Below are positions 19,061 to 64,000 of a stretch of 64,000 nucleotides of DNA, one piece after another. The DNA is from a virus. Where the stretch lies: the UHGV virus genome UHGV-1383976. The stretch is one strand, 5' to 3'. Position 1 is the first letter of the stretch, and each line of letters begins with the position of its first letter. The position numbers and the translations under genes were made by a program. A model generated the notes under the pieces. It was not told where the DNA came from, did no database searches, and saw only the letters and a list, made by a program, of their open reading frames with translations.

Positions 19061-19064
19061 ATAT

Positions 19065-19137: not shown

Positions 19138-19140
19138 TAT

Positions 19141-19775: not shown

Positions 19776-19789
19776 GAATTTTGAATAAA

Positions 19790-20330: not shown

Positions 20331-20343
20331 TTTGTATAAATTT

Positions 20344-33354: not shown

Positions 33355-33401
33355 ATAAAAATATAAGATAATTGAGATTTTACAAAAGGAGATCAATTCA
33401 A

Positions 33402-39505: not shown

Positions 39506-40342
39506 ATGATAAATCCGCAGGAATATGTAAATAAGGCATATCAGCTTGGCGAAAAGGTTTATGGTAATCGTCTTATATTCGCCGCACATTACGGCTCTTT
39601 CAATTATGGCCTTGCCGATGAGGAAAGCGATTGTGATGTCGCTCTTATTGTAATGCCATCAATGGAGGAAATTGTAAGGTGTGAAAGCTCCAACACTCCA
39701 TTGAAGCACGTTCCTGAAGGCGACATTGATGTAATTGATGTTCGCACTTTTGTTAGACGATTGGCTAACGCTGAGCTTAATTCTCTTCAGTATCTTTATG
39801 CGCCTTATCACAAGTGGAATGAATATTGGAATGATACTTTCGCGTCTCTTCACGGCAAGTTTCTTTGGGATATTGCTATGATAAATCCGTATGAACTTTT
39901 CTATAATATGCGGGGTGTAATAGCCCGCGCAAGTAAGCGAATGGATAATGTTAGTGAGAAAAATCCCTTTAGTCCATCTTGCTCTAAAGCTATTTATAAT
40001 GCAATGCGAATGATCGACCTTGCGAACGCATTCGCTGATGATATTGAGGAAAATGGTCTTGGCACTTATAACGACATCAATATATTTTCTTGGGAGTATG
40101 GTGTTCATAGTAGGAAGGACTTGATGGCAATGAAACGCGGTTTATATTCATACACAACCGCCCGCGATTGTATTGATTCGTGTATGAAAGAAATTGATAA
40201 GTTCCATGATATATTTATCAATGAGGACAATGAAACCATAGCTTTGGATAATCGTGCGGTACAGCGTCTTGAGCGAATGATTGAAGGCGCTCTCATTAAA
40301 CTTTACTTCAATGAAGCGGCTACACCAAAATTTTGGTCATAA
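39506..40342 (+). CDS. nucleotidyltransferase-fold protein (Pol-beta superfamily); possible tRNA or RNA end-modifying enzyme
   Basis: YGSFNYGLADEESDCDVALIV matches the hG[GS]x9-13Dh[DE]h NTase signature. SD aaaggag. Confidence 0.55.
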   Translation: MINPQEYVNKAYQLGEKVYGNRLIFAAHYGSFNYGLADEESDCDVALIVMPSMEEIVRCESSNTPLKHVPEGDIDVIDVRTFVRRLANAELNSLQYLYAPYHKWNEYWNDTFASLHGKFLWDIAMINPYELFYNMRGVIARASKRMDNVSEKNPFSPSCSKAIYNAMRMIDLANAFADDIEENGLGTYNDINIFSWEYGVHSRKDLMAMKRGLYSYTTARDCIDSCMKEIDKFHDIFINEDNETIALDNRAVQRLERMIEGALIKLYFNEAATPKFWS

Positions 40343-40395: not shown

Positions 40396-40401
40396 AAATA
40401 T

Positions 40402-40480
40402 GGGCCGGATAACTCAGATGGTAGAGAACCAGTGCGGTTAGGCGCTGGAGGAGGCGGTGGTTCGAATCCACCTCGGCCCA
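40402..40480 (+). tRNA. atypical tRNA-like gene (79 nt, no encoded CCA) with a 6-bp anticodon stem and an 8-nt loop cgGTTAgg
   Basis: Acceptor gggccgg/tcggccc. Perfect T-arm ggtggttcgaatccacc. Anticodon region ccagtg-cggttagg-cgctgg. Confidence 0.4.
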
Positions 40481-41330
40481 ATTAGATATGAAGGCGACAT
40501 ACAGTTATTATAGTCGCCGGACGTACTGCTCCGTCCATTACGAACAGAGCAGCCCCGCAAAACGAGGGTGAGAGTTGAGTTTGTTGGTTTTACTTGAAAC
40601 CGCCGTCGGGGTAAGTGGCGTTACATCTTACCAAAAAAATCCGTCTGACTGCAGTAAGGGCGGTTGGTTTGTAGGTTTGCCAATAGGTATAAGTCTAGAT
40701 ACCAATAAAATACTTACCAAAGAGGAGTAATATGGCTGAAGTCCTCCAGCGTGGTTGATATGTTGAAATGCCTAGGCCACGCACATATGTCAGTTTAGTT
40801 TAACGAGGGAAAACAACGCCCGTCAAGGCGTAATTTCGGGTTCGAGTCCCGAAACTGTCCTTGGTTTGACAGGCCAAGAAATTTGTCAGGTGCGGCCCTT
40901 TGTCGCCGGTCGAGACTCCGTCCGGAAATGAGCTACGTCTAAGTAAGAAGCGTGAACTTAGCGCTGATGTGCGTGATGCATCGGTTGCGTGTCCAAAACA
41001 CGACAGGTTTGGTTGAGTTTTCTACACAAAATTCAATTGGGTCAGGCCGCCCACAGGATGGCCGCGGGTTCCACTCCCCGAACGAAAAACAATCGGGAAA
41101 TCTCTTGTTTTTCTCAATTTTGTTAGTAGTTAGTCGCATTGATGAAATTGCTTTTTGGAGTAAAGTTGTGAGTAGCTAAAGAAATGACAATTCTTTTTCT
41201 ACTCAAAAAGCCAAGTATCCGCCTCTGCTTGGACATCCGCGCGAGGTTGCGTGTTGATGAAAAGCGTGGAAGGCAGTTATATAATGGGGACTGCCGCATA
41301 GTTGGTTTAGGAGAGTTGCCAGCTACGGAA
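40481..41330. ncRNA. third GC-rich ORF-free region with embedded tRNA-like fragments
   Basis: About 850 nt with no ORF. Contains tRNA-like gtcagtt...acgcc-cgtcaa-ggcgt...tcgggttcgagtcccga-aactgtc (6-nt anticodon loop, no CCA). Confidence 0.3.
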
Positions 41331-41332
41331 AT

Positions 41333-41409
41333 GGCGCATTGGACGAACTGGTAGAGTCACCACCCTTTCAAGGTGGAACTTAGGGGTTCAAGCCCCCTAT
41401 GCGTCACCA
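41333..41409 (+). tRNA. tRNA-Glu(TTC), CCA encoded
   Basis: Acceptor ggcgcat/atgcgtc. Anticodon arm ccacc-ctttcaa-ggtgg. T-arm aggggttcaagccccct. Confidence 0.65.
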
Positions 41410-50644: not shown

Positions 50645-51019
50645 ATGACTACTAGAGAGCTTTATGTTGCAGTTATCAATGGTGAGATGAATGACGAGAT
50701 GGTTGAGAAGGCTACCGCTCTTCTGGCTACTATGGACAAGGCAAAGGAAACCGCGAAGAATAAGCCCAGCAAGGCCGCTCTTGCCAATGAGAAGTATCTG
50801 ACCTATCTCAAGGCAAATGTGCTGACCAATGAGGGCAAGATTGGTTCCGAGCTGGCCGATGCGCTTACCGCGGCTTTTGCAGAGGACTTCAGCGAGAAGC
50901 CCTGCTCCGCTACTAAGGTTGCGAGCATCCTCAAGGCCAGTGTCGCTGACGGCACTGTCGTCAAGGAGAAGACCAAGATCGACAAGAGCGAGCGCACCAC
51001 TTACGCGCTGGCTGAGTAA
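50645..51019 (+). CDS. GC-rich gene for a small protein, paralog of 60654..61025 (putative winged-helix or DNA-binding)
   Basis: MTTRELYVAVINGEMNDEMVEKATALLATMDKAKE...VADGTVVKEKTKIDKSERTTYAL aligns with MTAREFYTTMMEKYDLTDELNAYCVEALASLDRRND...VKDGLISVEERKFPKVGKRKVYF. Local GC is clearly above its neighbours. Confidence 0.55.
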   Translation: MTTRELYVAVINGEMNDEMVEKATALLATMDKAKETAKNKPSKAALANEKYLTYLKANVLTNEGKIGSELADALTAAFAEDFSEKPCSATKVASILKASVADGTVVKEKTKIDKSERTTYALAE

Positions 51020-51938: not shown

Positions 51939-52700
51939 TTGGAATATGATTTTGAAAGCCGCAAGAAAGATACGGCTATTGTGAATTTGACAGATGCTTT
52001 GAATGTAATAGATCTTTATGAGGATGGAGATTTAGAAAAAGCTCTTGAATTAGCTATTGGTTTATTAGCCCTAGGATTTGGGGCGTCATTTGAAACAGAT
52101 GACAGAGAAATACAAAGGTTATTACGTAGTCGAGAATATACATCTGCGCGGGATAACCAAAAATATTTGAATGTAAAGAATACCAACGCCGCGCGTCAAA
52201 GAAATAAGCTTCAGGTTGATGAAATTCTTGATATGCTTAGTAATGGTGCGAAGCAATCAGTTATGGCTGATTCATTAGCTATACCTTTGGCTACTTTGAA
52301 GTATCGAATAAGAGTGATAAAGGAAAAATATCCCGAAGAATATAATGAAGCAATAGAAAAGTGTAAAAAGTATAAAAAGTATAATGAAGTATCAAAAGGT
52401 TGGCGGAATGATAAGGTAAATGATAATGATAAGGATAATGATAAGGTAAATGATAAAGATAATGAAAAAGAAGAAGTAGTTGATTCTGGTTATTTTATCA
52501 ATGGCGATGGTTATATAGAAAGTTTAGGTTTTTATCTTGGAGAAAAGTATAATAAACTTTGGACTGATTCAGAAAAAATTCGTACAGCTTATTTGAAAAG
52601 TCATTTTGATTTTACCGATGAGCAAATTGCTGACATAAATGAGATGGTTGAAGAAGAGAATGAATATCAACGCAATGGGGCTGTTGATTTAGGATTGTAA
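51939..52700 (+). CDS. HTH-containing protein (sigma-70 region 4 or LuxR-like helix) with Asn/Asp/Lys repeat linker; possible transcription regulator
   Basis: TTG start after SD gcaggagg. VDEILDMLSNGAKQSVMADSLAIPLATLKYRIRV resembles a DNA-binding HTH. The NDKVNDNDKDNDKVNDKDNEK segment is encoded by a tandem DNA repeat. Confidence 0.45.
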   Translation: MEYDFESRKKDTAIVNLTDALNVIDLYEDGDLEKALELAIGLLALGFGASFETDDREIQRLLRSREYTSARDNQKYLNVKNTNAARQRNKLQVDEILDMLSNGAKQSVMADSLAIPLATLKYRIRVIKEKYPEEYNEAIEKCKKYKKYNEVSKGWRNDKVNDNDKDNDKVNDKDNEKEEVVDSGYFINGDGYIESLGFYLGEKYNKLWTDSEKIRTAYLKSHFDFTDEQIADINEMVEEENEYQRNGAVDLGL

Positions 52701-52962: not shown

Positions 52963-53269
52963 TGGTTTTGATATTTACCTTACTTACAATCTTACCTACA
53001 CGTGTGTCTTCACCAATTTTGGTAGGAACGCCGCCCTGTAAGTAAGGTAGGAATTTTGGGATGTTAGAATTTTCCAGAAATTCGGTAAGTGCGGCGTGTT
53101 AGAAAAATTCTAGAAATTTTGGGACGTTGAAATTTTCCAAAAATTTCACCGTTGATGGAGTAAGAAAAATTGTGAAAAATTTGTGAATTTTTCAATTGGA
53201 CGAAATTTTTAGGACTGCGAATTTTAGGAGAGTAAGTAAGTCTCCTACACTTTATATTGTAAGTAAGGC

Positions 53270-53830
53270 AGATAAGTTAACTTATAAGTAAAATATATAA
53301 GTAAGACTTATAAGTAAGACTTATAAGTTAACTGTGTGTTCTACTTATAAGTTAATTGTATGTCCTACTTATAAGTTAACTGACAGCCCAACCTATAAGT
53401 TAACCTAGCGACAAACGGACCCAAGTCCGCCTCGCGGGAGGGAGTACAAGCTCCACCTATAAGTCAACTGAATTCCAAACCGCGCGCCCTACTTATAAGT
53501 TAACGGGAGGGCATTGTGTGCGGGAAAGCAACTGAGCCAGCGTGTGTGTGTTGTTGTACTGTAGCTCTCAACTGCGTAGCCAACCTATAAGTTAGCGAAC
53601 ACGTAAGCGAACGCCCACTCCACAACGCTTGGAAACCTAATGGTCGAGGCCTTGTGCGGGGTATGGGGAGGCGTTTTTATGACAAAAAAGGGATGGTAGT
53701 GCAAACTTTTATACAAAATCAAGTTTTTGATTTCACTATCCCAACACAATATCTTGTGGTCGACGGTTAGACGGTCGAACAGTTAGCTAACCTATAAGTA
53801 ATACTTATAAGTAGGGCCTACTTAACCTTT
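53270..53830. repeat. iteron array: at least 12 copies of the palindrome (C)CTTATAAGT(T/A)AAC, a candidate replication origin or protein-binding array
   Basis: cttataagtaaaatatataagtaagacttataagtaagacttataagttaactg...ctacttataagttaattg...ctacttataagttaactg...cctataagttaacc...cctataagtcaactg...ctacttataagttaacgg...cctataagttagcg...cctataagtaatacttataagtaggg. Confidence 0.6.
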
Positions 53831-54329
53831 TCTCCAATTTTTGGGGAAATTTTTTTATGTCAAATTTTGGAAACAAAATGGCGCGGCACGATTGGTTCAT
53901 CAAAAATATTCTTGCCAGAAATTACCCGTAATTCCACAATTCAACTTATTAATAGTCTTGTTCGCGCACGTGTTGCCAAAACTTTTCTAGAGTCCAATCC
54001 TTCTCTCAAAAAATTTTTCGTGGCTCAGAACGAATAAAATCAGTCGTGATGGTGCGGCAACGTTCCAGATGGGGCTTACAGGCGCGCCTTGGAAAATTTT
54101 ACCAGCCGTGGTAAATTTTGGGAAATTTGTAAAATTTTGGGAACAGCTGCTAGACTGGCCGGTCGCCGCGATTCGTATCTCGCGTCATCTTTGTGCGGCC
54201 AACTCAATGGTCAGAAAAGTTGCTTTTTTTTACAATGTAGCGTTTTGTGATTTGTCATACAATAAAAACAGAAATCGCGTATGGAAAATTTTGGAAGCAC
54301 CGCACAATTATTTCCAGCTTTTCGTTTTA

Positions 54330-54480
54330 GCTGTTGGGTATATGAAAAATTTGGCGGCCTCGGTTTTAGGCGGTCTGGCTTTTCCAGCTTTCTCCAGCTT
54401 CTTCCAAATTTCCAAAATTTTCCAGCTTATGGTTCAGCTTTTCCAGCCGCTACAGCTGCAGCTTTTTCAGCTTTTTGACG
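54330..54480. repeat. TTCCAGC(T) microsatellite-like repeat tract
   Basis: ttttccagctttctccagcttcttccaaatttccaaaattttccagcttatggttcagcttttccagccgctacagctgcagctttttcagc. Confidence 0.5.
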
Positions 54481-54589
54481 TCGGCCCTTACGTATCGCCA
54501 CAGGTGCGGCCACACAAGTAGGTATGGCCTCGCCACGGGATTACGCGCGATTGGTAAATTCTGTAAGAAATGGTAAAATTTGGAAGCCG

Positions 54590-54700
54590 TGGTACTTATT
54601 GGATGAATTGTCAAATTCTGGACGAATTGTCAAATTCTGGTAAAAGAATTACCAAATTTTGGTAAAAAGAATTGTCAAATTCTGGTAAAACTTGAAAATA
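54590..54700. repeat. three direct copies of GAATTGTCAAATTCTGG(T/A) with GGTAAAA spacers
   Basis: gaattgtcaaattctggacgaattgtcaaattctggtaaaagaattaccaaattttggtaaaaagaattgtcaaattctggtaaaa. Confidence 0.55.
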
Positions 54701-54761
54701 AAAATTTAGACTACGTTAGTCTAAAACAAAAAAACAAAAGGAAGATTTTTCAATCTCCCTT

Positions 54762-54953
54762 TCATTTCTCATATCTTTCATAACCTATAACTTGAATTTC
54801 TTCATCTTCACCATTCACGCGTTTTATATAATAAATATTATTTTCATATTTTACAAGCATAATTCTTACATAATCAGCATCTTCGGCGCAAGTTGAAAAA
54901 AGTCTTTCATCTTTTATAATTTCACCGTATCTAATAATTTCGTGTGAATCCAT
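54762..54953 (-). CDS. early small protein E1 (63 aa)
   Basis: Leader aaaaggagaatttaaaaATG. Promoter TTGACA-16-TATAAT with the palindrome 6 nt upstream of the -35. The track ORF start at 55016 lies inside the promoter. Confidence 0.55.
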   Translation of the reverse strand: MDSHEIIRYGEIIKDERLFSTCAEDADYVRIMLVKYENNIYYIKRVNGEDEEIQVIGYERYEK

Positions 54954-55060
54954 TTTTAAATTCTCCTTTTCATTTAGTAATTGTATTATACACCAAAATT
55001 CTAAAATGTCAAGCATTATTTTAGACTAACATAGTCTAAAAACAAAAAAAGGAAGATTTT

Positions 55061-55426
55061 TCAATCTTCCTCGCTCTCGTCTTTCTTCTTTGCTTCACGC
55101 TCGGCGGCTTTCGCTTCACGGCGTGCCTTATCGCGTGCTATCTTCTTCTCTTTCTCCGCGGCTTTCGCGGCGGCCTTCTCCGTCTTTTCAGCAAGTTTGA
55201 GCGCGTAGCCCTCGCGCCGTGCGTAGCAGTCGTCTCCATCCTCATCCTTCGGAATTTTTATGACTACCTGCACACAACCTTCTTCCCCATCATCGGCAAC
55301 GACAGGGAAACTAAATACACTTGCCCCTTCAAGTCCTACATCTTCGCCCATTTTCTGCGCATAGCTCATAAAAAATTCTACAAACTTCGCACGAAGAACA
55401 TTAGCATTTTTAACAGTCATTTTCAA
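55061..55426 (-). CDS. early protein with folded N-domain and histone-H1-like Lys/Ala-rich tail (copy A)
   Basis: MKMTVKNANVLRAKFVEFFMSYAQ...FSFPVVADDGEEG...IKIPKDEDGDDCY, then KAAAKAAEKEKKIARDKARREAKAAEREAKKK. Promoter TTGACT-17-TATACT. Terminator ggaagattgaaaaatcttcc plus T7. Confidence 0.6.
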   Translation of the reverse strand: MKMTVKNANVLRAKFVEFFMSYAQKMGEDVGLEGASVFSFPVVADDGEEGCVQVVIKIPKDEDGDDCYARREGYALKLAEKTEKAAAKAAEKEKKIARDKARREAKAAEREAKKKDESEED

Positions 55427-55546
55427 ATTCTCCTTTTCTTATTTTGTGAGTAAAGTATATCACCATTTTCTATAAAAGTCAATAGTTATTTTTTCAATAA
55501 TGCCGCGCGATTAGACTACCGTAGTCTAACTTTTATAAAGCAGGAA

Positions 55547-55792
55547 TTACTCCTGCTCAGTCATTTCATCCTCGGCAGTATCTTCTCTCCAATAAGAGCA
55601 TTCCCCATCGAATTCGGCTTCTTCAAGGATATAAACCAAACCATCTCTTGCTTCTCGAAAATCCTTTTCCCATTTGCCATCTTCCTGACTGTATGCATAC
55701 AGATTATCAAGAATCTTTGCGGCGTGCTTCAAGGCTTCTTCTTCTTCCGAACTAAGAACATACTTCTTTGAAATGCAAGTGCGAACTATCAT
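55547..55792 (-). CDS. early small acidic protein (copy A), 81 aa
   Basis: MIVRTCISKKYVLSSEEEEALKHAAKILDNLYAYSQEDGKWEKDFREA...EDEMTEQE. Leader aaaaggagattttaaaaATG. Promoter TTGACT-17-TATAAT. Confidence 0.55.
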   Translation of the reverse strand: MIVRTCISKKYVLSSEEEEALKHAAKILDNLYAYSQEDGKWEKDFREARDGLVYILEEAEFDGECSYWREDTAEDEMTEQE

Positions 55793-55942
55793 TTTTAAAA
55801 TCTCCTTTTCATAATTTCTGAATAAATTATAACACAAATTTTTTGAAAAGTCAAGTTTTATTTCTTTTGATTTTAGACTAAGTTAGTCTAATTATGGGAT
55901 TTTGTGAAAAATTTCACAAGTTGAGTCAAAAAAGGAAACGTT

Positions 55943-56815
55943 TTACAACGTTTCCATTTTATTCAAGAAGGCTTCAACTGTTCCAAGTTCGCGGAAGGGA
56001 AAATATATAATTCCTATTTCATATTTGCCTTTTGTCCGTTTGTGAATTTCCGCGAAAATTTTGCTTTCAATTTCTGCGTCAGAAAGTGCGGTATGCTCTT
56101 CATCAAAATCAAAATTATTTTCCAAAAAGCGAAAAGATGTTTCTGCACTTGTCTTGAAATATTTCCCGCTTGCCGTTATCCAATCATTATTGACACAAGC
56201 CTGCTTGTATTCATCATTATTGAGTAAGTGCCGCGCCGACAAGCCCCACAAATCAAACAAAGGATAGGCAACGCCATGAAAACGGAAAACTTCGCTTTCA
56301 AATTCTTTGCGGCTTTCGTATCTTCTGCCATTTGCGATATACTCACAAGTGCGCTCTTGCAGGGCAAGCCAAGAATGAAACTGCGCGGAATAAAGATTAT
56401 TTATGTAAAGCTCTGTAAATGGAATTGCTTTCTTGAAGTCAAACATTGAATTATACGCGCCTACGGCGGAAACTTCGGACAAATCGCGCTCAAGAACTGA
56501 TACCGCGCGCTTCCAGTCGGTTAGCTCAATTTCGTCGCGCTCCAGCCGTTCAAGATAAATCGGGCGTTTGCTTGCATAGTATGCGGTATCAAAAACGGCA
56601 GGAACGCTGAAAATCTCACTTATCAGAAAACTGCGGCGGCGATATACATTTCCTTTTGCGTCAATTATCTGCCATCCTAAATCATAAATAAGCGGCTTCG
56701 CAATAGCAACTTTCTGCTTCGCGTCGGCGGGCAGGTCTGCGGCGCATGGTAGTGTAGCAGTTTCACAGTCAAGAATCATGTAGTATTTGCGGCGGCGGTC
56801 GAGTCTCTTTTCCAT
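55943..56815 (-). CDS. DEDD-family 3'-5' exonuclease (DnaQ-like)
   Basis: Exo I YYMILDCETATL. Exo II YNSMFDFKKA. Exo III HTALSDAEIESKIF. Start taken at the ATG at 56815 (MEKRLD) with a leader like the other units. The track start at 56869 is a TTG inside the promoter TTGACT-17-TATAAT. Confidence 0.7.
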   Translation of the reverse strand: MEKRLDRRRKYYMILDCETATLPCAADLPADAKQKVAIAKPLIYDLGWQIIDAKGNVYRRRSFLISEIFSVPAVFDTAYYASKRPIYLERLERDEIELTDWKRAVSVLERDLSEVSAVGAYNSMFDFKKAIPFTELYINNLYSAQFHSWLALQERTCEYIANGRRYESRKEFESEVFRFHGVAYPLFDLWGLSARHLLNNDEYKQACVNNDWITASGKYFKTSAETSFRFLENNFDFDEEHTALSDAEIESKIFAEIHKRTKGKYEIGIIYFPFRELGTVEAFLNKMETL

Positions 56816-56975
56816 TTTTTTCAATTCCTTTTCATATGTTGTCAAGGGTTCGTCTTCGCTCCCTTGCAAGTATTATTATAGCACCACCGCGCAAGAAAGT
56901 CAATCGTTAGTTTTTTCACAAGCCCCAATTTTTAGACTAACTTAGTCTAAAAAATCCATAAAAAAGGGAACTTTT

Positions 56976-57317
56976 TCAAGTCCCCTTTTCGGCCTTTTCG
57001 GCCTTCTTCGCTTCGCGGCGCGCTTCATCCTTGGCAATTTTCTTCGCCTTTTCGGCGGCCTTCTCTTTGGCCTTCTGTGCTTTCTTCTCCTGATTCATGG
57101 CGTACTCTTTACGGCGGCTGTAGCAGTCGTCTCCATCCTCATCCTTCGGAATTTTTATGACTACCTGCACGCTTCCTTCCTCTCCGTCATCAGCGACAAC
57201 GGGGAAGCTGAAAATATTTGTGGCTTCAAGGCCAACATCTTCACCGCTTTCCTGTGCATACTCCATAAAAAACTTTATAAACTTTGCCCGCATTGCATTA
57301 GCATTTTTTACAGTCAT
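56976..57317 (-). CDS. early protein with histone-H1-like Lys/Ala-rich tail (copy B)
   Basis: MTVKNANAMRAKFIKFFMEYAQ...FSFPVVADDGEEG...IKIPKDEDGDDCY, then KKAQKAKEKAAEKAKKIAKDEARREAKKAEKAEK. Paralog of 55061..55426. Confidence 0.6.
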   Translation of the reverse strand: MTVKNANAMRAKFIKFFMEYAQESGEDVGLEATNIFSFPVVADDGEEGSVQVVIKIPKDEDGDDCYSRRKEYAMNQEKKAQKAKEKAAEKAKKIAKDEARREAKKAEKAEKGT

Positions 57318-57448
57318 TTTTCAAGTCTCCTTTTCATTTAGTAATTGTATTATATCAAAAGCCGCGCTAATTGTCAATAGTTTTTTTCTGTAAATTTAGA
57401 CTAAGTTAGTCTAAAAAATATAAAAGCGGGATTCTCCCGCACTTAGGG

Positions 57449-57685
57449 CTAGTTAATTGAAGTATAATTTTCTTCCCAGAAAGTTCCCATATCATTCTGC
57501 TTTAACTCGTTTATAAGATAGTGGATACTATCGTTCGCTTCCTGAAAGTCGCCTTCATACTCTCCATGTTCTTCACTCTTATTATAAAGATTGTCAAGAA
57601 GCTCTGCGGCCTTGTGGAGTGTGTTTATATCTTCATCTGAAAGAAAATAGCGTTTAGTAGAGTAAGTCTTGATAATCATTTTCAA
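57449..57685 (-). CDS. early small acidic protein (copy B), 78 aa
   Basis: MKMIIKTYSTKRYFLSDEDINTLHKAAELLDNLYNKSEEHGEYEGDFQEA. Paralog of 55547..55792. Promoter TTGACT-18-TATACT. Confidence 0.55.
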   Translation of the reverse strand: MKMIIKTYSTKRYFLSDEDINTLHKAAELLDNLYNKSEEHGEYEGDFQEANDSIHYLINELKQNDMGTFWEENYTSIN

Positions 57686-57807
57686 AATCCTCTTTTCTTA
57701 TTTTGTAAGTAAAGTATAGCACAATTTTTTTAAAAAGTCAAGTTTCTTTTGCTTGTGGATTTAGACTAACTTAGTCTAAACGCATATAAAAAGACTGACG
57801 TTTTCTG

Positions 57808-58035
57808 TCAGTCAATTTCAAATACTCCGTCAATGGGAATTACTTCATGAAGTTCATTGAATGTTGTAATATCTCCATCACAAAGGCGAACTGCGTTCCA
57901 TTCATTATAGTCGCTATCTTCAATAGAACTTATTTTCATATAGATACTATCTATTTCATCAGAAAGAGCGAAGCAATCTCCGCGATTAATCATTCTATAT
58001 TCTACGGACTTATTGAACTTTCTACGAATTTCCAT
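57808..58035 (-). CDS. early small protein (75 aa)
   Basis: ATG at 58035 (MEIRRKF) after aaaggggaaataaaaATG. Promoter TTGACA-17-TATTAT. Terminator gactgacagaaaacgtcagtc plus T5. Confidence 0.5.
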   Translation of the reverse strand: MEIRRKFNKSVEYRMINRGDCFALSDEIDSIYMKISSIEDSDYNEWNAVRLCDGDITTFNELHEVIPIDGVFEID

Positions 58036-58153
58036 TTTTATTTCCCCTTTCGTTTTGTAAATATATAATACCATATGCCGCACGATTTGTCAACAAGTAA
58101 TTCAATCTGTTTTAGACTACAGTAGTCTAACATTAAAAAGACGCCTTATGGCG

Positions 58154-58468
58154 TCATCGCATTATTTGTTCAAAAGATTCAGTATGCCCACATTCATTAC
58201 AAGTGTAATAATATGTTGTACTCATTGCTGACTTTGCCGCGGCTGTAAATTCATAAGTGCCGCCACATTCACAAATCCCTTCGTTCCATCGTTCTGCTTG
58301 TCCCTCGTTTTGATGACAAAGTGCAAGAGAGATTCCAAGAGCAAGCGCAAGAGCAAGAATTATACTAAGAATTTTCCCTATAATAGTATTACAATTTAAA
58401 ACCATAATTGGGGCAATACAAATAAAGAGAAGCCCCCAAAGAATATAAAAGTAGATACTTTGAAACAT
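58154..58468 (-). CDS. early membrane protein with two transmembrane helices and a C-terminal zinc ribbon
   Basis: FYILWGLLFICIAPIMVL and ILSIILALALALGISLAL. CECGG...CNECGH. Promoter TTGACA-17-TATAAT. Confidence 0.55.
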   Translation of the reverse strand: MFQSIYFYILWGLLFICIAPIMVLNCNTIIGKILSIILALALALGISLALCHQNEGQAERWNEGICECGGTYEFTAAAKSAMSTTYYYTCNECGHTESFEQIMR

Positions 58469-58575
58469 TGAATCAATTCCTTTCTTAATTTTGTAATTGG
58501 ATTATAACATAAAATTGCGCGCTTGTCAATCCCCCCCTTTAGACTACATTAGTCTAAAAAGAAAAAGAGGAAGTT

Positions 58576-58779
58576 TTATTCTTCCTCGTCAAAAATACAT
58601 TCAGCAATAATTTGATGGTAATACCTCATTTTGGATTGCCAAGTGAAATATAAATCACTAATGCGTTGAAGCTCTTTACTATCTTCTTCATCTAAAATAT
58701 TTTTTCGTGCGCGGTGTAAATCAGCCGAAAGAGAAAGCAAATCATCTGCAATTTTTTCTATGCGTTCAGAATATTTCAT
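58576..58779 (-). CDS. early small protein (67 aa)
   Basis: Leader aagaaaaggaagtattaaaataATG. Promoter -10 TATACT. Terminator gaggaagaataaaacttcctc plus a T-run. Confidence 0.5.
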   Translation of the reverse strand: MKYSERIEKIADDLLSLSADLHRARKNILDEEDSKELQRISDLYFTWQSKMRYYHQIIAECIFDEEE

Positions 58780-58885
58780 TATTTTAATACTTCCTTTTCT
58801 TATTGTGCCTAAAGTATATCATAAATCAAAAAAAATGTCAAGTCTTATTTTAGACTAACTTAGTCTAAAACCCGAAACGGAAAAG

Positions 58886-59353
58886 TCAATTTGACTTTCC
58901 CAAAATTTTCAGAATTTCTAACATTTCCTTTTCACTGAATGAATTTTCTCCCCATTCTTCACGATTGCGCGCTTCATCATCGAAAAGAATTGCATTTTCG
59001 TCATAGAATGAACATACAGTTGACTTCGGTGTTCCATAAGGAACAACACAAATTTCATCAAAGTGAACACTTTTCAAATGGACAGAAAGCCATTTCTTTT
59101 TTGCCGTCTCAATTTCTGCAAGGTATGCCGCGCTTGCTGTCTTGCTTCCCCAAGAAACAATACAAAGTTTATATCCCATCTTCTTCAATTTGTTCAACTG
59201 TCGCGCGAGTATGCGCATATTGCCGAGTGGGTCTGCGTGCAGATAAGGGCCGACTAATTTCATTTGCAAATTGTCAAGCCAATTAGGGAACGAATAAAAA
59301 TCAACTATTGTACCATCCATATCGAAATAAAGTGCAGGCTTGCGATTATACAT
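58886..59353 (-). CDS. HAD-superfamily phosphatase (5'-nucleotidase-like)
   Basis: LYFDMDGTIVDF is HAD motif I (DxDGT). 155 aa. Promoter TTGACA-17-TATACT. Confidence 0.6.
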   Translation of the reverse strand: MYNRKPALYFDMDGTIVDFYSFPNWLDNLQMKLVGPYLHADPLGNMRILARQLNKLKKMGYKLCIVSWGSKTASAAYLAEIETAKKKWLSVHLKSVHFDEICVVPYGTPKSTVCSFYDENAILFDDEARNREEWGENSFSEKEMLEILKILGKSN

Positions 59354-59512
59354 AAAACATAATTTCCTTTCTTATTTTGTAAAATAAGTATAACATAATT
59401 ATGCGGTTTTGTCAAGTTGCTTTTGCTTGTGATTTTAGACTATCTTAGTCTAAATTTATTCAAAAAAAATGGGCGGATTCCCCGCCCGATTTTCATTTTT
59501 ATTTTTCCTTTC

Positions 59513-59785
59513 TTAAATTTCTACAGAAACTTTTTCATATCCATCGGCGTCGAAATCATCCCATGCGACGTCTTCCATTTCTTTCATAAAGTCAGCGCGA
59601 ACGCCTTTCTTTTCGTCTTCACTCATGTAAAACAAGCAAAGATGAGAATAATTTTCAAAAAGCCAATCGCTAAAATTATCGTCGCTTACCGTGTTAGGGT
59701 AGTATTCATTTTCTATGGTTTCTTGCGCTTGCTTTTCATTGAGAATTATACCTTTCTCCCAATTCACATAAAGATTAGCTAACAT
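59513..59785 (-). CDS. early small acidic protein (90 aa)
   Basis: Uninterrupted ORF with the usual promoter and leader arrangement. Confidence 0.5.
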   Translation of the reverse strand: MLANLYVNWEKGIILNEKQAQETIENEYYPNTVSDDNFSDWLFENYSHLCLFYMSEDEKKGVRADFMKEMEDVAWDDFDADGYEKVSVEI

Positions 59786-59984
59786 TTTATCAATTCCTTT
59801 CTTGTTTTCTGTGTCTATTATACTATATGATTTTTAGTTTGTCAATAAGTTTTTCTTTCTGTTTTAGACTAAAGTAGTCTAATTTTATAAAAAATCTAAA
59901 AGGCGGGAGTCCGTCCTTTAGTTTTAAGTTTATTAAAATTTCTTAAATTCTTTTTAGCAAATGCCAAGAACCAATACGGAAAAC

Positions 59985-60089
59985 TACGCGATAAATGCGG
60001 CGTCCAATGCGAACCCATTCGTTTCTTCGGAATTTATTGTTTAATGCTCCACCGAAATCCCAACCGCAGTAACCGAAAATTTCATTCAT
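59985..60089 (-). CDS. tiny basic ORF (34 aa) in its own promoter, palindrome and terminator unit; could instead be a small RNA unit
   Basis: Promoter TTGACA-17-TATAAT, then gtaatcaagaaaaggaagtgaacgcaATG. MNEIFGYCGWDFGGALNNKFRRNEWVRIGRAFIA. Confidence 0.3.
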
Positions 60090-60203
60090 TGCGTTCACTT
60101 CCTTTTCTTGATTACATTATATCACATTTTTAGAGAATGTCAATAATTATTTTTTGATATATTAGACTAACTTAGTCTAAATTTTTAAAAAAGGGAAGAT
60201 TTT

Positions 60204-60509
60204 TTAATCTCCCCTTTTATCATAACGGAGCACAAGTTCAAAATCATCATAACTGTCTATATAGTGTGCAGTTTGTGGTTCAATTCCAAAGTCCTCGCAT
60301 ACATCCACGGCGGGGGTATCTTCAAAATAATAACAGGTGTCGTGGAAGCTGCTAGTTATATCAATAACAGGAAGTTTATTATTCTCGCCAACTTGACTAC
60401 CAACAATAAGAAATTTCGGCTCACCTGTTTCATTGCTTCCATGAATTGCATAAAGATTTTTTATTCCAGTCCGTCCATTTATTACTTTATTAACTTCAAA
60501 TCTAACCAT
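60204..60509 (-). CDS. early small protein (101 aa)
   Basis: ATG at 60509 (MVRFEV) after aaaaggagatttgaaaATG. Promoter TTGACA-17-TATTAT. Confidence 0.5.
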   Translation of the reverse strand: MVRFEVNKVINGRTGIKNLYAIHGSNETGEPKFLIVGSQVGENNKLPVIDITSSFHDTCYYFEDTPAVDVCEDFGIEPQTAHYIDSYDDFELVLRYDKRGD

Positions 60510-60653
60510 TTTCAAATCTCCTTTTCGTTTTGTGAGTATATAATATCATATATTGTATAGTTTGTCAATAGAATTTTCAGAAATTTTTAGACTAACTTAG
60601 TCTAACTTTCCCCCTAAAAAAAGAAATGGGATTATCTCCCATTTCTCTTCGGT

Positions 60654-61025
60654 TTACTTCTCAACGAAATAAACCTTGCGCTTGCCCACCTTCGGGAACT
60701 TGCGCTCTTCCACGCTGATAAGGCCGTCCTTCACAAGTCCACGCGCAATCGCGCCCGCCTTGTTGTGCGTGACTTCAAGAGCTTCGCCGAGTTCGGTTTC
60801 CGTCAGACCGTCACAGCCATCAGCCGACAGTGCTTCGATAATGCCCGCGCGGATAGGCGCGTTCTCAGTTGCGGACTTCTCGGCGGCCTTGCTCTTGCGC
60901 GTATCGTTCCGGCGGTCGAGACTTGCGAGAGCTTCCACGCAATATGCGTTCAGCTCGTCAGTCAGGTCGTACTTCTCCATCATGGTGGTGTAGAATTCGC
61001 GTGCAGTCATCTTCTTGTCGTTCAT
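60654..61025 (-). CDS. GC-rich gene for a winged-helix-like protein (paralog of 50645..51019) with a long structured GC-rich leader
   Basis: LTETELGEALEVTHNKAGAIARGLVKDGLISVEERKFPKVGKRKVYF shows an HTH plus wing pattern. Promoter TTGACT-17-TATAAT, then a leader of about 95 nt with hairpins gtgaaggggag...gtccctcac and ggcggcgacc...gcgcc. Confidence 0.55.
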   Translation of the reverse strand: MNDKKMTAREFYTTMMEKYDLTDELNAYCVEALASLDRRNDTRKSKAAEKSATENAPIRAGIIEALSADGCDGLTETELGEALEVTHNKAGAIARGLVKDGLISVEERKFPKVGKRKVYFVEK

Positions 61026-61195
61026 GGTATTTCCTTTCTTAATGGCGCTAAGGTCGCCGCCCTTATTAGTGAGGGACTTTATCTCCCCTTCACGATTATT
61101 ATTATATCACAATATCGCGGAAAGTCAACAATTATTTTTCTGGGATTTAGACTAACTTAGTCTAAATTTTATACAAAAAAGAGCGGGTTCCCCGC

Positions 61196-61417
61196 TCATT
61201 CTTCGATTATAAGTTTATGTTTTACTTCGCAACATATTTCATTGTTATCGACAAAAAACAGTTCTCCATTGTCAAGATACATAGCATTGCCTTCATCTGT
61301 TGTATCAGTTTTTATGAAAAATTCATTAGGATCGATTTTCTTTACAAGAACAGTCCCGCGCGGAAAGTAGTCAAATGTTTTATTCTTCTTTTCATTGCGC
61401 AAATCTTCAATTATCAT
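61196..61417 (-). CDS. early small protein (73 aa)
   Basis: ATG at 61417 (MIIEDL) after gaaggagaataaaaaaATG. Promoter TTGACA-17-TATTAT. Confidence 0.5.
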   Translation of the reverse strand: MIIEDLRNEKKNKTFDYFPRGTVLVKKIDPNEFFIKTDTTDEGNAMYLDNGELFFVDNNEICCEVKHKLIIEE

Positions 61418-61556
61418 TTTTTTATTCTCCTTCAAAAATTTATTTATTTTTTACTGTGCTTATATAATATCATATATAATGTAATTTGTCAATAAAATTT
61501 TCAGAAATTTTTAGACTAACTTAGTCTAAAATTCCAGAAAAACCAAAAGGTGGAAA

Positions 61557-61946
61557 TTACTTTCCACCAATTGGGCACACGGTTAAGCCGTGTTCTTTAA
61601 GGTATTGAATTGCTTTTTCTCCGTCATGGTATTCAAGAATTTGTTGAATTGATGGATGTGCTTCATCATATTCATTAACTACTACAATATCAATTTCGGG
61701 ATTTTTCTTTTCTGTTGCAATAGGAAGAAGGCTATCATAATAGCCAAAACGTCGAAGACCTTTTCTATTAGTTTCTACCGCAACATCGTTTGTCAAACAG
61801 TTATGATGTGCCCATTCGAGCAAATCCCAACTACCGTATTTTATAGATTCTTCTGGAATTTCATCGGCAAGTTGGAAATTCGTGCGGCGATTGCACAAAA
61901 TTTCTTTATTGTAAAAGATAGTTATAAACCGGTAGAACGCTTTCAT
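61557..61946 (-). CDS. early protein (129 aa), translationally coupled to the upstream membrane peptide
   Basis: ATGA overlap at 61943-61946. Begins MKAFYRFITIFYNKEILCNRR. Confidence 0.5.
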   Translation of the reverse strand: MKAFYRFITIFYNKEILCNRRTNFQLADEIPEESIKYGSWDLLEWAHHNCLTNDVAVETNRKGLRRFGYYDSLLPIATEKKNPEIDIVVVNEYDEAHPSIQQILEYHDGEKAIQYLKEHGLTVCPIGGK

Positions 61947-62164
61947 TTCGTTGCTTCCTTTCCAATGCCAAATATAAGCTTTACAAGCCACAAAACAAGC
62001 CACATCAAAAATGCGGTTTTGGCGCTGAAGGCGAACGCGATAACGCCCAGCTTAGTGAGCGCCCACCACAGCACCCAAATAAGCCCCAAGGTGATACCTG
62101 CGCTAATTGCAGACAAAAGCGTAACAATGAGAATTCCAAGAATTACAGCAATCGTTTTATTCAT
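61943..62164 (-). CDS. early small membrane protein (73 aa, 2 transmembrane segments)
   Basis: MNKTIAVILGILIVTLLSAISAGITLGLIWVLWWALTKLGVIAFAFSAKTAFLMWLVLWLVKLIFGIG. Promoter TTGACA-17-TATACT. Confidence 0.55.
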   Translation of the reverse strand: MNKTIAVILGILIVTLLSAISAGITLGLIWVLWWALTKLGVIAFAFSAKTAFLMWLVLWLVKLIFGIGKEATK

Positions 62165-62279
62165 TTTATTAATTCCTTTCCGGTTTTGTGAGTCAAGTAT
62201 AACACATAAATTTTGGTTTGTCAATAGATTTTGGAAGAAAGGTTAGACTAAGGTAGTCTAAATTTTGAGCGGGAACTTT

Positions 62280-62591
62280 TCAGTTCCCTTTGTTCCAATC
62301 TTCAGAAATGCGATCAAAGACTTCTTCAGACGTAAGCCAACCCTCAACAGAATCGCCATTGCGAGTCAGGCCCATTATTTCGAGAAGCCCTTCTTCATGC
62401 CCATAACTGCCGCTATGGCAAACTGCGTCACAAATCAATTCATCTCCGTGGCCGTAATACCGCACAGAGGGCATCCCCCAAATATATTCTATTCGATAGG
62501 GAATTTTTGCCTCTTGCAGAAACCACTCAAGCTTGCCCATTTCAATATATTCTATTTCAATTCCATACGAGTCCTTCTTTATTAATTCCAT
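62280..62591 (-). CDS. early small protein (103 aa)
   Basis: ATG at 62591 (MELIKK) after aagaaaaggagattttcaaaaATG. Promoter TTGATT-17-TATTAT. Confidence 0.5.
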   Translation of the reverse strand: MELIKKDSYGIEIEYIEMGKLEWFLQEAKIPYRIEYIWGMPSVRYYGHGDELICDAVCHSGSYGHEEGLLEIMGLTRNGDSVEGWLTSEEVFDRISEDWNKGN

Positions 62592-62719
62592 TTTTGAAAA
62601 TCTCCTTTTCTTATTGTATTTATATAATATCACAAAATTTTTCGTAAATCAACCCACAAAAATTTCCAATTTAGACTAAGATAGTCTAAAAACTCTGAAA
62701 AAGTTTGAGCTTCATCGGC

Positions 62720-62899
62720 TCAAACAAATTCTGCAAAAGAGCGTTCCACAGCTCCTGCATCTTCACGGCAGCACTCAATCCTTATCAGGTTATCGCCTAG
62801 GTGCTCTACAAAGCAGGGGATGTTAGCTTCCAGCAGATTCATTGCTCGAATAAATTCGGGCGCGTTCGCATCTTCAACATAAATTTCCTTTATATACAT
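62720..62899 (-). CDS. early small protein (59 aa), not in the ORF track
   Basis: Promoter TTGACA-17-TATAAT. Leader gagagaaaggaattgattaccaaATG. MYIKEIYVEDANAPEFIRAMNLLEANIPCFVEHLGDNLIRIECCREDAGAVERSFAEFV. Terminator tttgagccgatgaagctcaaa plus T5. Confidence 0.45.
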   Translation of the reverse strand: MYIKEIYVEDANAPEFIRAMNLLEANIPCFVEHLGDNLIRIECCREDAGAVERSFAEFV

Positions 62900-63042
62900 T
62901 TGGTAATCAATTCCTTTCTCTCAATTTCTGTATTCATTATATCACAAATTTTCTATAATGTCAAATCCATTTTCTTTCCAATTTAGACTATGATAGTCTA
63001 AAACAAAATTTTTGTAAAAAAATGAGCGGGAGTCAATCCCGC

Positions 63043-63324
63043 TCAATTCCAGCCGCGCATTTTCCAGCACAGAGCATTGCCCGGCTGCCCGTAGCAGATG
63101 TTCGGATGCAGGATAACCTCGCCTTCGAGGATTCCGAGCTTTTCGTAGAATTCCTCAATCAGCACATCGGTAGCCTCAATGCGCGCCTGCTCCAGCGTGT
63201 CGGCTGATGGAGCTTCCAGCTCTCCCCAGCTAATAAGGATACTATTCACAATCGGCGGCAGGCGGTGAGCGTTCGCGGCAACGTAGGCGCAGAGTTCGTT
63301 GTAGTTTATGGCGGTAGTAGTCAT
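63043..63324 (-). CDS. early small protein (93 aa), relatively GC-rich
   Basis: Promoter TTGACC-17-TAGAAT. Leader gaaaaggggattttccaATG. Terminator gagcgggattgactcccgctc plus T7. Confidence 0.5.
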   Translation of the reverse strand: MTTTAINYNELCAYVAANAHRLPPIVNSILISWGELEAPSADTLEQARIEATDVLIEEFYEKLGILEGEVILHPNICYGQPGNALCWKMRGWN

Positions 63325-63468
63325 TGGAAAATCCCCTTTTCAAGTATGCCTAATTCTACCACACATTTGCGGAAAGGTCAATGGCAGAAAATTTCCAATT
63401 TAGACTATCATAGTCTAAATCGCTAGTTTGTGAAATAACTAACGAACTTTTCCAAGAAAAAGGAACGG

Positions 63469-63801
63469 TCAAATGACCGCTCCGATTTTCCCCATTTTCT
63501 GCCATTTTGTAATTGTTTTCCAGTTTTCTGACGCTTGCCGCACAAGCGATAAAGGCGCGTTTTTGTCGTGCGCGCTGTATATGTCATTGATTTGTTTGAC
63601 TGTCGCAGGATAGAACGTTATCAAAATACCGCGTTTCCCGCGCACAAACACTATTGCGCGGTCGGTAATGTCAACAGTTGCGCGGCGTTCGCTGTCATAG
63701 AATGATTCATACGTCTGCCCGATACCAAGTTCAGATATGAGAAGCGCGCGGTCGGCACGCTCTGAACTAACGTGCCGACTTGCGCGCCGTGCTTTATACA
63801 T
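63469..63801 (-). CDS. early protein (110 aa), GC-rich, coupled to the upstream membrane peptide
   Basis: Its ATG overlaps the TAA of the upstream 31-aa ORF. Terminator ggagcggtcatttgaccgttcc plus T5. Confidence 0.5.
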   Translation of the reverse strand: MYKARRASRHVSSERADRALLISELGIGQTYESFYDSERRATVDITDRAIVFVRGKRGILITFYPATVKQINDIYSAHDKNAPLSLVRQASENWKTITKWQKMGKIGAVI

Positions 63802-63889
63802 TGTGCGTTTGGTCGTAGAGCATACCGCCTATTAAGCCGACAGCTCCAAGGAAGGCAAGGATAGCGAAACCAAGTGTAAAGTACATCAT
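63794..63889 (-). CDS. 31-aa single-transmembrane peptide, not in the ORF track
   Basis: Strong SD gaaggaggg then ATGATG. MMYFTLGFAILAFLGAVGLIGGMLYDQTHNV. ATGA overlap with the stop of the upstream partial gene. Confidence 0.4.
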   Translation of the reverse strand: MMYFTLGFAILAFLGAVGLIGGMLYDQTHNV

Positions 63890-64000
63890 TCGCCCTCCTT
63901 CAGCATTTGGAACTTGTCATACAAGTCCCAGCTTACATACACGACCAGTTCAGGCCAACGGGGGCTATCATAGCTCAAGCGGGCGCTCAAGCTTGCGACT
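63886..64000 (-). CDS. 3' end of a minus-strand gene that enters from beyond the window
   Basis: Open frame ...WDLYDKFQMLKEGE and a TGA overlapping the next start codon. Confidence 0.35.
   Translation of the reverse strand, partial: VASLSARLSYDSPRWPELVVYVSWDLYDKFQMLKEGE

Follow-up and report, generated by a model that had tools for sequence, protein, structure and literature searches.

Twenty copies of one short palindrome, with the core TTAGACTA-N3-TAGTCTAA, punctuate a module of small genes in the virus genome UHGV-1383976, of which we analyzed a stretch of 64,000 nucleotides (hereafter the window). Several described systems resemble this arrangement in part. First, the promoter-early stem-loop (PeSL) elements of T4-type phages are cassette-shuffling elements in which crossovers occur within the stem-loop or beside it (Arbiol et al., 2010, PMC2839356; Comeau et al., 2014, PMC4122927). 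As with PeSL elements, close relatives here have gained, lost, or replaced cassettes by crossover at a repeated composite element; small orphan genes of a variable region stand between the copies of this element, and insertion/deletion breakpoints fall inside it. In contrast, the PeSL stem-loop is itself the G+C-rich terminator and is loosely conserved, whereas here a separate, invariant, A+T-rich palindrome lies between terminator and promoter, in fixed register to the -35 element. Pfam and PHROG scans gave no T4-like hallmarks, and the host of the phage analyzed here is probably Gram-positive.

A second comparison is offered by SPBRE, a 15-bp motif at about ten SPbeta promoters that is bound by the master repressor MrpR and maintains lysogeny (Kohm et al., 2023, PMC10516654). 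SPBRE was predicted to be an operator from sequence long before MrpR, which has a tyrosine-recombinase fold, was found (PMC10516654). Both cases involve a short conserved motif at many promoters of a large Firmicute phage (SPbeta is about 130 kb), and genes neighboring the module in relatives of our phage carry the SPbeta-derived Pfam family YonG_N; however, the palindrome has 20 copies, about one per gene, in a single module and in helical phase with the -35 element, and SPbeta is temperate. Third, Cluster O mycobacteriophages carry more than 30 copies per genome of a 17-bp palindrome, TGTTCGG-NNN-CCGAACA, mostly intergenic (Cresawn et al., 2015, PMC4351075), which in one phage flanks a gene that is absent from the others (PMC4351075). 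That repeat shares with ours the invariant arms, the variable 3-bp center, and a binder and function without assignment, but its copies are spread genome-wide and show no association with the few SigA promoters predicted there, and no phasing was reported for it.

Three further systems bear on how such a site could act. Class I activators such as CRP bind as dimers upstream of the -35 element on one helical face, contact the C-terminal domain of the RNA polymerase alpha subunit, and work from positions whole turns apart, while phage phi29 p4 reportedly represses the strong A2c promoter via the alpha subunit by over-stabilizing the polymerase. Positions at whole turns upstream of the -35 element are common to these regulators and to our palindrome, for which an alpha contact is suggested by geometry only; unlike here, they use one or few sites per genome, and no homology to p4 was detected. 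The stoperators of Cluster A mycobacteriophages (L5 gp71) are two to three dozen repressor sites in short intergenic gaps that silence the genome coordinately; they are asymmetric 13-bp sites, orientation-dependent, located within transcribed DNA, and they block elongation. Many copies of one short site in intergenic gaps recall stoperators, as did the roadblock idea of an earlier sequence-only reading of the window, but our sites are symmetric, lie between terminator and promoter, and are promoter-phased. Finally, integron attC sites are imperfect palindromes of 57-141 bp with R''/L''/L'/R' boxes and extrahelical bases, which bound promoterless cassettes next to an intI-type tyrosine recombinase; here each cassette has its own promoter, and precomputed Pfam marks show no recombinase domain in the flanks of relatives.

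By sequence and context, the element belongs to none of SPBRE, stoperators, PeSL, or the Cluster O repeat, and we found neither the motif nor the phage group described in our searches of the literature. What is new is the strict helical phasing to promoters, the series of lineage-specific motifs in one architecture, and crossovers placed precisely in the operator-like site. We favor, with somewhat better than even confidence, a reading in which the palindrome has two roles: as the operator of a dimeric regulator, which works on RNA polymerase from a constant helical face, and as a crossover point for cassettes.

The repeated palindrome itself was confirmed by several counts. Scanning the window for the 21-mer TTTAGACTANNNTAGTCTAAA returned 13 exact matches, all in 54705..63419, and none in 100 dinucleotide-preserving shuffles; allowing up to three mismatches gave 20 copies in the same interval and none elsewhere in the window (chance expectation 0.05). 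The 19-bp core was perfect in 20/20 copies, and the mismatches of the seven imperfect copies were restricted to the outermost base or bases, so that the element is a perfect 8-9 bp inverted repeat around a 3-bp center. Lone 8-bp half-sites outside the module (17721, 20311, 22365) occur at the level expected by chance for an 8-mer.

All module genes lie on the minus strand, as indicated by ORFs and by a change in the sign of GC skew at ~54 kb. Along that strand each unit consists of a G+C-rich terminator hairpin with its T-run, the palindrome, an A-rich spacer, a promoter, an AAAGGAG ribosome-binding site, and a small gene (Table 1). The promoters are near-consensus and of sigma-A type (TTGAC(A/T), 16-17 bp, TATAAT), with a TG extension in most. 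Consensus scans found 29 terminator-like sites (7.6 expected) and 45 promoter-like sites (25.7 expected), and almost all promoter matches at 12/12 or 11/12 positions were on the minus strand and adjoined a palindrome. Every copy comes after an intrinsic terminator and 19 of the 20 precede a promoter on the minus strand; conversely, a palindrome stands upstream of each strong TTGAC(A/T)-type promoter in the module. Every module gene has terminator-like and promoter-like sites on its flanks, an arrangement also found in PeSL-type composite elements.

The distance between palindrome and promoter is quantized. From the 21-mer to the -35 element, the gap is 17/18 bp in 14 units, 7/8 bp in three, and 27 bp in two, which places the palindrome centers near -53, -63, or -73 in the usual promoter numbering, while the gap from the terminator stem to the palindrome varies irregularly between 3 and 41 nt. 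The intervening spacers have diverged in sequence and kept their length. Since the gap to the -35 element steps by 10 bp and the gap to the terminator is irregular, the palindrome is positioned relative to the promoter and not to the terminator. Such 10-bp stepping is the classic signature of a protein confined to one face of the helix relative to RNA polymerase. The sequence-only reading had taken a distance of 8-28 bp as variable, and hence as an argument against a phased site; the spacing proved instead to follow whole helical turns.

These positions also bear on the idea that the palindrome acts in RNA, as a second hairpin on read-through transcripts involved in termination, processing, or stability. 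The element can fold as an 8-bp stem with a 3-nt loop, it stands just after each terminator, and its two arms covary between lineages. However, it comes after the terminator T-run, and what follows it is an A-run rather than a U-run; the stem is weak (-6.9 kcal/mol) and A+T-rich, with two G-C pairs per arm, unlike an intrinsic terminator; and it is the distance to the next promoter that is phased, while that to the terminator is irregular. In addition, variants in the clade of contig 169513 (see below) break the innermost pair in a non-wobble manner on the sense strand (A·C, A·A, T·T), and the module matches no Rfam family. We regard an RNA role as very improbable. Being located between a terminator and the next start site, the palindrome is largely untranscribed, and the earlier preference for a protein-binding DNA site over an RNA element was borne out as the likelier alternative by the A-run, the weak stem, and the irregular terminator gap.

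We also looked at related phages. A nucleotide search with the module against 50,697 deposited phage genomes gave no match, but a search with the core motif retrieved five related IMG/VR contigs of 75-132 kb, each with all its copies within one module of 6-10 kb. Two of them (158127 and 159271) are 80-93% identical to the window, and three (181059, 169513, and 167376) are distant from it. The palindrome has the same orientation and the same placement at sigma-A-type promoters in 5/5 contigs, and the TTAGACT core is common to phages whose shared proteins are only ~30% identical. Further relatives were followed via homologues of two module proteins, F1 (60654..61025) and F4 (55943..56842, 300 amino acids). 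Homologues of F4 were found at 79 loci, on contigs of ~10-180 kb (most 50-180 kb) from many metagenomes.

The relatives found through F1 and F4 revealed other palindromes in the same place. Among those found through F1, locus L020 carries 18 copies of TTAGACGT-N3-ACGTCTAA at spacings of 9, 19, or 27-29, and loci L026 and L028 carry CACTTTA-N4-6-TTAAAGT at 22 or 31-32. By a de novo count of perfect inverted repeats in the F4 loci, we identified TTAGACTT-N3-AAGTCTAA, TCTAACCTA-N3-TAGGTTAGA, TTGGGACGT-N3-ACGTCCCAA, TTGGATGTA-N-TACATCCAA (33 copies in one locus), TTAGATGTT-N-AACATCTAA (25 copies), and ATACGTT-N-AACGTAT, giving at least eight lineage-specific types in all with the same architecture; by this strict count, about half of the 79 loci had no repeated palindrome. 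Within a genome the arms are unchanging among 10-33 copies, and between lineages both arms have changed symmetrically in all copies, for example from TA/TA to GT/AC, which is the behavior expected of a homodimer site. The invariance of the arms within genomes and their retention at ~30% protein identity argue for sequence-specific recognition over a mere capacity to form a hairpin. In L026 (3000..10200), we also observed GCCCGGGC just upstream of the A+T-rich palindrome in nearly every intergenic gap, and groups of three to four palindromes without promoters at 4395..4510 and 10094..10190.

Helical phasing recurred along with these unrelated motifs. Over 23 loci, 351 of 366 palindrome-promoter pairs (96%) fell in a two-residue window modulo 10, covering up to five successive turn classes; the nominal binomial probability for this count has no meaning as an exact value, since the copies are related by descent and the two residues were selected locus by locus, but the effect is overwhelming all the same. 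In the window and in these 23 loci alike, the site centers lie on one helical face, whole turns apart, as at class I and p4-type sites. Taken together, the invariant arms, their symmetric change between lineages, the untranscribed gap, and the helical register argue for a DNA-level site for a polymerase-facing dimer.

Under the operator reading, a sequence-specific dimeric protein, most likely phage-encoded, would bind the palindrome and, centered near one of the three positions given above, would touch RNA polymerase bound at the neighboring promoter of sigma-A type, probably through the flexible C-terminal domain of the polymerase alpha subunit. About 19 transcription units, mostly of a single gene, would thereby be switched together. 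Repression, that is, a coordinate shut-off of early genes, appears the likelier direction, and activation is possible; we lean modestly toward repression because the module promoters are already near consensus. The same 21 bp, with the adjoining conserved promoter, would be the preferred crossover point for gain, loss, and reordering of promoter-gene-terminator cassettes. The operon at the upstream end of the module has no palindrome of its own. In L020 and L022, the spacer of the first promoter contains half-sites of the palindrome used by that lineage, which hints that this first operon may be under the same control as the palindrome units.

Our analysis also identified a second class of promoter, AAATTTGATT-N17-TATAAT, with 11 exact copies between 1295 and 50567 (e.g., at 8931, 11992, 36567, 38825, 40343, and 50535) where none was expected. 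These promoters are found on both strands, all of them outside the module, and never have a palindrome upstream, showing that the palindrome marks one transcriptional class. The second class may be a middle class or may depend on an additional factor.

Cassette exchange was examined by splitting the modules at their palindromes and clustering the encoded proteins. Close relatives differ by whole cassettes, and the distant contig 181059 has shared cassettes in another order. When the window is aligned with contigs 158127 and 159271, the aligned segments begin at -9 to -15 and end at +9 to +13 from the palindrome centers, or end just past the promoter. In anchored alignments of the window with these two close relatives, 4/4 cassette insertion/deletion junctions (Table 1) showed the switch of homology within the 21-bp palindrome, with the left flank homologous to one unit and the right flank to another, and the promoter-less copy at the end of the module fits a crossover role. 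Shuffling of cassettes at the palindrome, the second option of the sequence-only reading, is thus upheld as far as crossovers, gain or loss at palindrome boundaries, and reordering in a relative are concerned, while nothing shows a dedicated site-specific recombinase. Precomputed Pfam marks record no recombinase or integrase domain in the module or in the flanks of relatives, and exchange by short homology is therefore the economical reading; the pattern fits recombination between short repeats, as for PeSL elements.

From here it is a short step to the view that the palindrome is only a recombination linker, in which a hairpin or cruciform and 21 bp of identity promote short-homology recombination or template switching with no regulator involved, and the copies stay identical because they often exchange sequence with one another and with those of co-infecting phages. 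The four junctions support this view, as do the terminal copy that bounds the last cassette, the joint change of both arms between lineages (as concerted evolution would give), the comparable behavior of PeSL elements and of the Cluster O 17-bp repeat, and the fact that no covarying binding protein was found. It leaves unexplained, however, the strict 10-bp register to the -35 element in 23 loci and eight motif types, the kept length of spacers whose sequence drifts, and the identical core at ~30% protein identity, and the hairpin is weak, at the RNA folding energy given above. We consider a pure linker unlikely.

A more specialized form of exchange would make the palindrome the target of a dedicated site-specific recombinase or nuclease, and the module an integron-like cassette platform in a phage. 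Each cassette has a boundary at either side, and the crossovers map precisely to the palindrome; GTTAGAC/GTCTAAC fits what we take to be the degenerate integron core-site consensus (GTTRRRY / RYYYAAC); and the proteins encoded by the first gene of the module (L009, 8543..9184; L022, 2923..3678; L020, 5821..6360) have invariant E...D...E-x-K and KT.GG residues, the former reminiscent of PD-(D/E)xK nucleases. This first-gene family may be a nuclease, but it matched neither Pfam nor solved structures, and its presence does not cleanly track palindrome type within the DNA available. Against an integron-like platform also stand the lack of an integrase or recombinase domain in the precomputed Pfam marks of the module and its flanks, the promoter carried by every cassette, the short perfect palindrome in place of a long imperfect attC site, and a promoter phasing that would go unexplained, and we judge it highly improbable.

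Also unlikely, in our view, is a dedicated cassette-exchange platform, the phage equivalent of an integron, in which one palindrome would combine the function of a promoter-timing operator with that of a recognition site for a phage nuclease or recombinase. The unannotated first gene would be the candidate for an enzyme that may cut or exchange DNA at the palindrome. If this were true, takeover and anti-defence genes would move between co-infecting phages as ready-to-express units, and the eight or more palindrome types would correspond to separate exchange groups. REP/RAYT-type elements were set aside, as the palindrome does not have the G+C-rich REP form and no transposase was seen.

Regarding the regulator required by the operator reading, F1 was alone among families of DNA-binding type in occurring in every genome of the first comparison, and it had already been named as a candidate from sequence. 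It is a real winged-helix protein: the AlphaFold model (pLDDT 86.6) shows three helices and a beta-hairpin wing at residues 55-121, and the fold matches MarR, PadR, and TFE winged helices. In sequence, its Pfam matches stay below the gathering score, and 15 of 28 relatives gave a weak match to MarR_2 (best E-value 1.9e-5). The family has two to four paralogues per phage with a conserved N-terminus, MT.REFY.AI. A second paralogue in the window lies outside the module (50645..51019, plus strand, 124 amino acids) and, together with the copies of L020 and L026, likewise shows no covariation with the palindrome. F1 was rejected as the determinant of palindrome specificity, since helix and wing are almost the same across three palindromes.

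Two other genes had been put forward in the sequence-only reading, 36632..36883 and 51939..52700, and neither matched Pfam. The winged-helix-like genes 36632..36883 and 50645..51019 are each located directly behind a AAATTTGATT-class promoter, and both remain candidate binders. The F1 gene has an unusually long leader (61026..61100, minus strand) with two hairpins, seemingly conserved in L020 and L026 and without a match in Rfam, and in these two loci a second promoter precedes the gene.

Alternatively, a host transcription factor could bind the site and tie the early promoters to a host signal, with changes of palindrome tracking changes of host. This would suit a motif that is constant across deeply diverged phages with no phage protein covarying, and the only proteins available when infection begins are those of the host and any that are injected; a precedent exists in phi29, whose early promoters bear sites for host Spo0A (PMC2731898). 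A search for the palindrome in 185,579 bacterial and archaeal genomes (596 Gb) gave 68 matches, approximately the number expected by chance for 16 specified bases. Eleven of them (Table 1) place the exact 19-bp palindrome 25-125 bp upstream of a gene for a repressor of the BlaI/Penicillinase_R family in Lacrimispora, Hungatella, Eubacterium, and other Firmicutes, often with additional half-sites alongside, and in L057 the BlaI-family gene is followed by what reads in translation as a BlaR1-like peptidase. A bacterial winged-helix dimer thus very probably reads exactly this sequence, as far as the gene context goes, and the bacterial palindrome is presumably the operator of the BlaI-family repressor.

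The bearing of these bacterial sites on the phage is limited in several ways. The matches represent one orthologous locus, and with only 65,536 possible 8-bp half-sites a coincidence in 596 Gb is plausible, so that the identity of the phage and BlaI palindromes may be coincidental; no phage homologue of a BlaI-type repressor was found in the window or in related loci. The only multi-copy bacterial match, a 3-kb contig binned with an Acutalibacteraceae genome, is a weak hint on the host, and Acutalibacteraceae are not among the taxa with the BlaI site. At least eight palindrome types among closely related phages of the same metagenomes look more like rapid co-evolution of operator and regulator. 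We give little credence to a host factor. No integrated copies of these phages were found in the same 185,579 genomes, and no integrase among the scanned window proteins or in the flanks of relatives, which does not point to a temperate phage.

Several observations weigh against the operator reading and account for our restrained confidence in it. No binding protein was identified among the candidates examined: the F1 recognition helix THNKAGA(I/L)AR and the wing PKVGKRKVY are near-identical across phages of the TTAGACTA, TTAGACGT, and CACTTTA types, and the helix sequences of 85 F1-family members do not sort by palindrome type. A hairpin or cruciform would be expected to change symmetrically in both arms just as much. 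Copies within a genome are related by descent and recombination, so the phasing statistics make them look more independent than they are, and nearly all spacings in the clade of contigs 169513 and 167376 (loci L022 and L024) belong to one class (10-11), which gives no basis for judging phasing in that clade. The copy at the end of the module lacks a promoter, and a pure operator would have no need of this copy. Finally, "early" and "repression" are both inferred. A common operator for a dimeric regulator, the first option of the sequence-only reading, is nonetheless the best-supported reading, with the difference that its support comes from the phasing, the opposite of what had been argued; the arrangement also recurs in related phages, with the same module architecture and with the palindrome phased there too.

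The phage is large and uncultivated, probably infects Gram-positive bacteria of the gut or rumen, and most likely has a switch site that is shared by nearly all promoters of the module. If the operator reading is right, a terminator followed by a lineage-specific palindrome, a whole number of helical turns, and a sigma-A promoter would mark one class of coordinately controlled units, and these rules would apply throughout a large set of phages that have not been cultured, 50-180 kb in size and drawn from many metagenomes. Genes for host takeover and anti-defence are usually found in such units and could then be harvested without culture. With at least eight variants in the same geometry, the operators would provide a clean system to study the evolution of regulator specificity and the effects of distance and helical face on a Gram-positive RNA polymerase, as well as possible orthogonal parts for Firmicutes. 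Crossovers at the operator would extend the PeSL idea, that is, regulatory repeats as exchange linkers, from T4-type phages of Gram-negative bacteria to an unrelated group.

As for its gene content, the module comprises 20 genes in 19 promoter-bearing units, followed by a twentieth palindrome past the last terminator. Several details of the sequence-only reading were revised accordingly. It had counted 22 small genes, and twenty 9+3+9 copies with perfect half-sites; the number of copies stands, but only 13 of the 20 are perfect 21-mers. Confinement of the motif to the module was confirmed in the window and in the five related contigs, as was its placement after a hairpin/T-run terminator and before the next promoter, apart from the terminal copy, which lacks a convincing promoter. 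Each unit does have one palindrome, but not every intergenic gap: there is none between the overlapping genes of unit 4 and none in the operon at the upstream end. The supposed tandem duplication of two genes consists of blocks (78 and 113 amino acids; 81 and 121 amino acids) separated by a gene of 290-300 amino acids.

Weak Pfam matches were obtained for only one of ten module proteins tested, in line with the small orphan genes of PeSL regions, and the functional labels given earlier to module genes are weakly based. The "HAD phosphatase" has a sub-threshold Pfam match (E 4.8e-4) and weak matches to solved structures. The "DEDD exonuclease" is without database support beyond a PHROG family with no assigned function, although certain acidic and histidine residues are invariant in it, and a sequence search for related solved structures returned none. 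In the close relative L009, the first operon encodes proteins of 213, 91, and 110 amino acids.

Table 1. Features of the cassette module in the window, cassette-exchange junctions, and bacterial occurrences of the palindrome. Spacing is the gap from the 21-mer to the -35 element.
Feature	Position	Promoter	Spacing (bp)	Gene(s)	Remarks
Cassette module	54705..63419 (-)			20 small genes	20 palindromes, 19 promoter-bearing units, leftward transcription
Last gene of palindrome-free first operon	63469..63801 (-)			110 aa	Rest of operon past window end (seen in L009, 8543..9935)
Palindrome 1	63399..63419	63353..63381 (TTGACC-17-TAGAAT)	17	63043..63324 (93 aa)	Perfect
Palindrome 2	62982..63002	62936..62964 (TTGACA-17-TATAAT)	17	62720..62899 (59 aa)	Perfect
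Palindrome 3	62670..62690	62624..62652 (TTGATT-17-TATTAT)	17	62280..62591 (103 aa)	Perfect
Palindrome 4	62242..62262	62196..62224	17	61943..62164 (73 aa), 61557..61946 (129 aa), overlapping	1 mismatch (outer base); crossover point vs contigs 158127, 159271
Palindrome 5	61510..61530	61464..61492	17	61196..61417 (73 aa)	Perfect
Palindrome 6	61146..61166	61101..61128	17	60654..61025 (F1, 123 aa, winged-helix)	Perfect; leader ~75 nt
Palindrome 7	60586..60606	60540..60568	17	60204..60515 (103 aa)	1 mismatch; crossover point
Palindrome 8	60161..60181	60116..60143	17	59943..60089 (48 aa)	1 mismatch
Palindrome 9	59863..59883	59817..59845	17	59513..59785 (90 aa)	1 mismatch; crossover point
Palindrome 10	59434..59454	59387..59415	18	58886..59353 (155 aa, weakly HAD-like)	Perfect
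Palindrome 11	58849..58869	58813..58841	7	58576..58779 (67 aa)	Perfect; crossover point
Palindrome 12	58538..58558	58501..58529	8	58154..58468 (104 aa)	Perfect; crossover point
Palindrome 13	58111..58131	58065..58093	17	57808..58035 (75 aa)	1 mismatch
Palindrome 14	57760..57780	57713..57741	18	57449..57685 (78 aa)	Perfect; crossover point
Palindrome 15	57395..57415	57349..57377	17	56976..57317 (113 aa, Lys/Ala/Glu-rich tail)	Perfect; crossover point
Palindrome 16	56931..56951	56875..56903	27	55943..56815/56842 (290-300 aa, family F4)	Perfect; gene product used as query for relatives
Palindrome 17	55872..55892	55826..55854	17	55547..55792 (81 aa)	1 mismatch
Palindrome 18	55510..55530	55454..55482	27	55061..55426 (121 aa)	2 mismatches (outer bases)
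Palindrome 19	55020..55040	54985..55012	7	54762..54953 (63 aa)	Perfect
Palindrome 20	54705..54725				Perfect; terminal copy after last terminator, no convincing promoter downstream
Exchange junction 1	Window palindrome 4
Exchange junction 2	Window palindromes 7 and 9				vs 158127 number 9
Exchange junction 3	Window palindromes 11 and 12				vs 159271 number 14
Exchange junction 4	Window palindromes 14 and 15				vs 158127 number 14
Palindrome upstream of BlaI-family gene, bacterial loci					L036, L038, L040, L041, L048, L052, L057, L063, L080, L082, L094

The spacers of two of the 19 units (60569..60585 and 61493..61509, minus strand) read AAATTTCTGAAAATT, one mismatch from what we take to be the CodY box, AATTTTCWGAAAATT.

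Next to the module, the window contains 1.7 kb of non-coding, repeat-rich DNA (53000..54700) at the convergence of the two directions of transcription. This stretch includes seven copies of CTTATAAGTTAA, mostly 24 bp apart, at 53306..53600 and four to five copies of GAATTGTCAAATTCTGGTAAAA at 54605..54690, and repeats of TACGTATACGT occupy the equivalent position in L020 and L026. It could be a replication origin or a packaging region.

Elsewhere in the window, a full-length ROOL RNA (Rfam RF03087; 272 bits, gathering score 99) is encoded at 18412..19059 (plus strand) within a tRNA cluster, which points to a phage of rumen or gut Firmicutes. Two group I introns (Rfam RF00028) were found on the plus strand, at 21466..21741 and 34334..34683 (67 and 71 bits, respectively), the latter after a GH25 lysin ORF (33372..34397) and before a gene similar to HNH/NUMOD3 homing endonucleases (34741..35451). 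Finally, ARAGORN predicted 15 tRNA genes in 12045..20418 and 40401..41409, two of them with abnormal anticodon loops (40401..40481 and 40789..40860). The second tRNA group lies beside genes for an RtcB RNA ligase (37618..38823) and, at 39506..40342, for an RlaP-like nucleotidyltransferase; together they suggest a tRNA-repair set.

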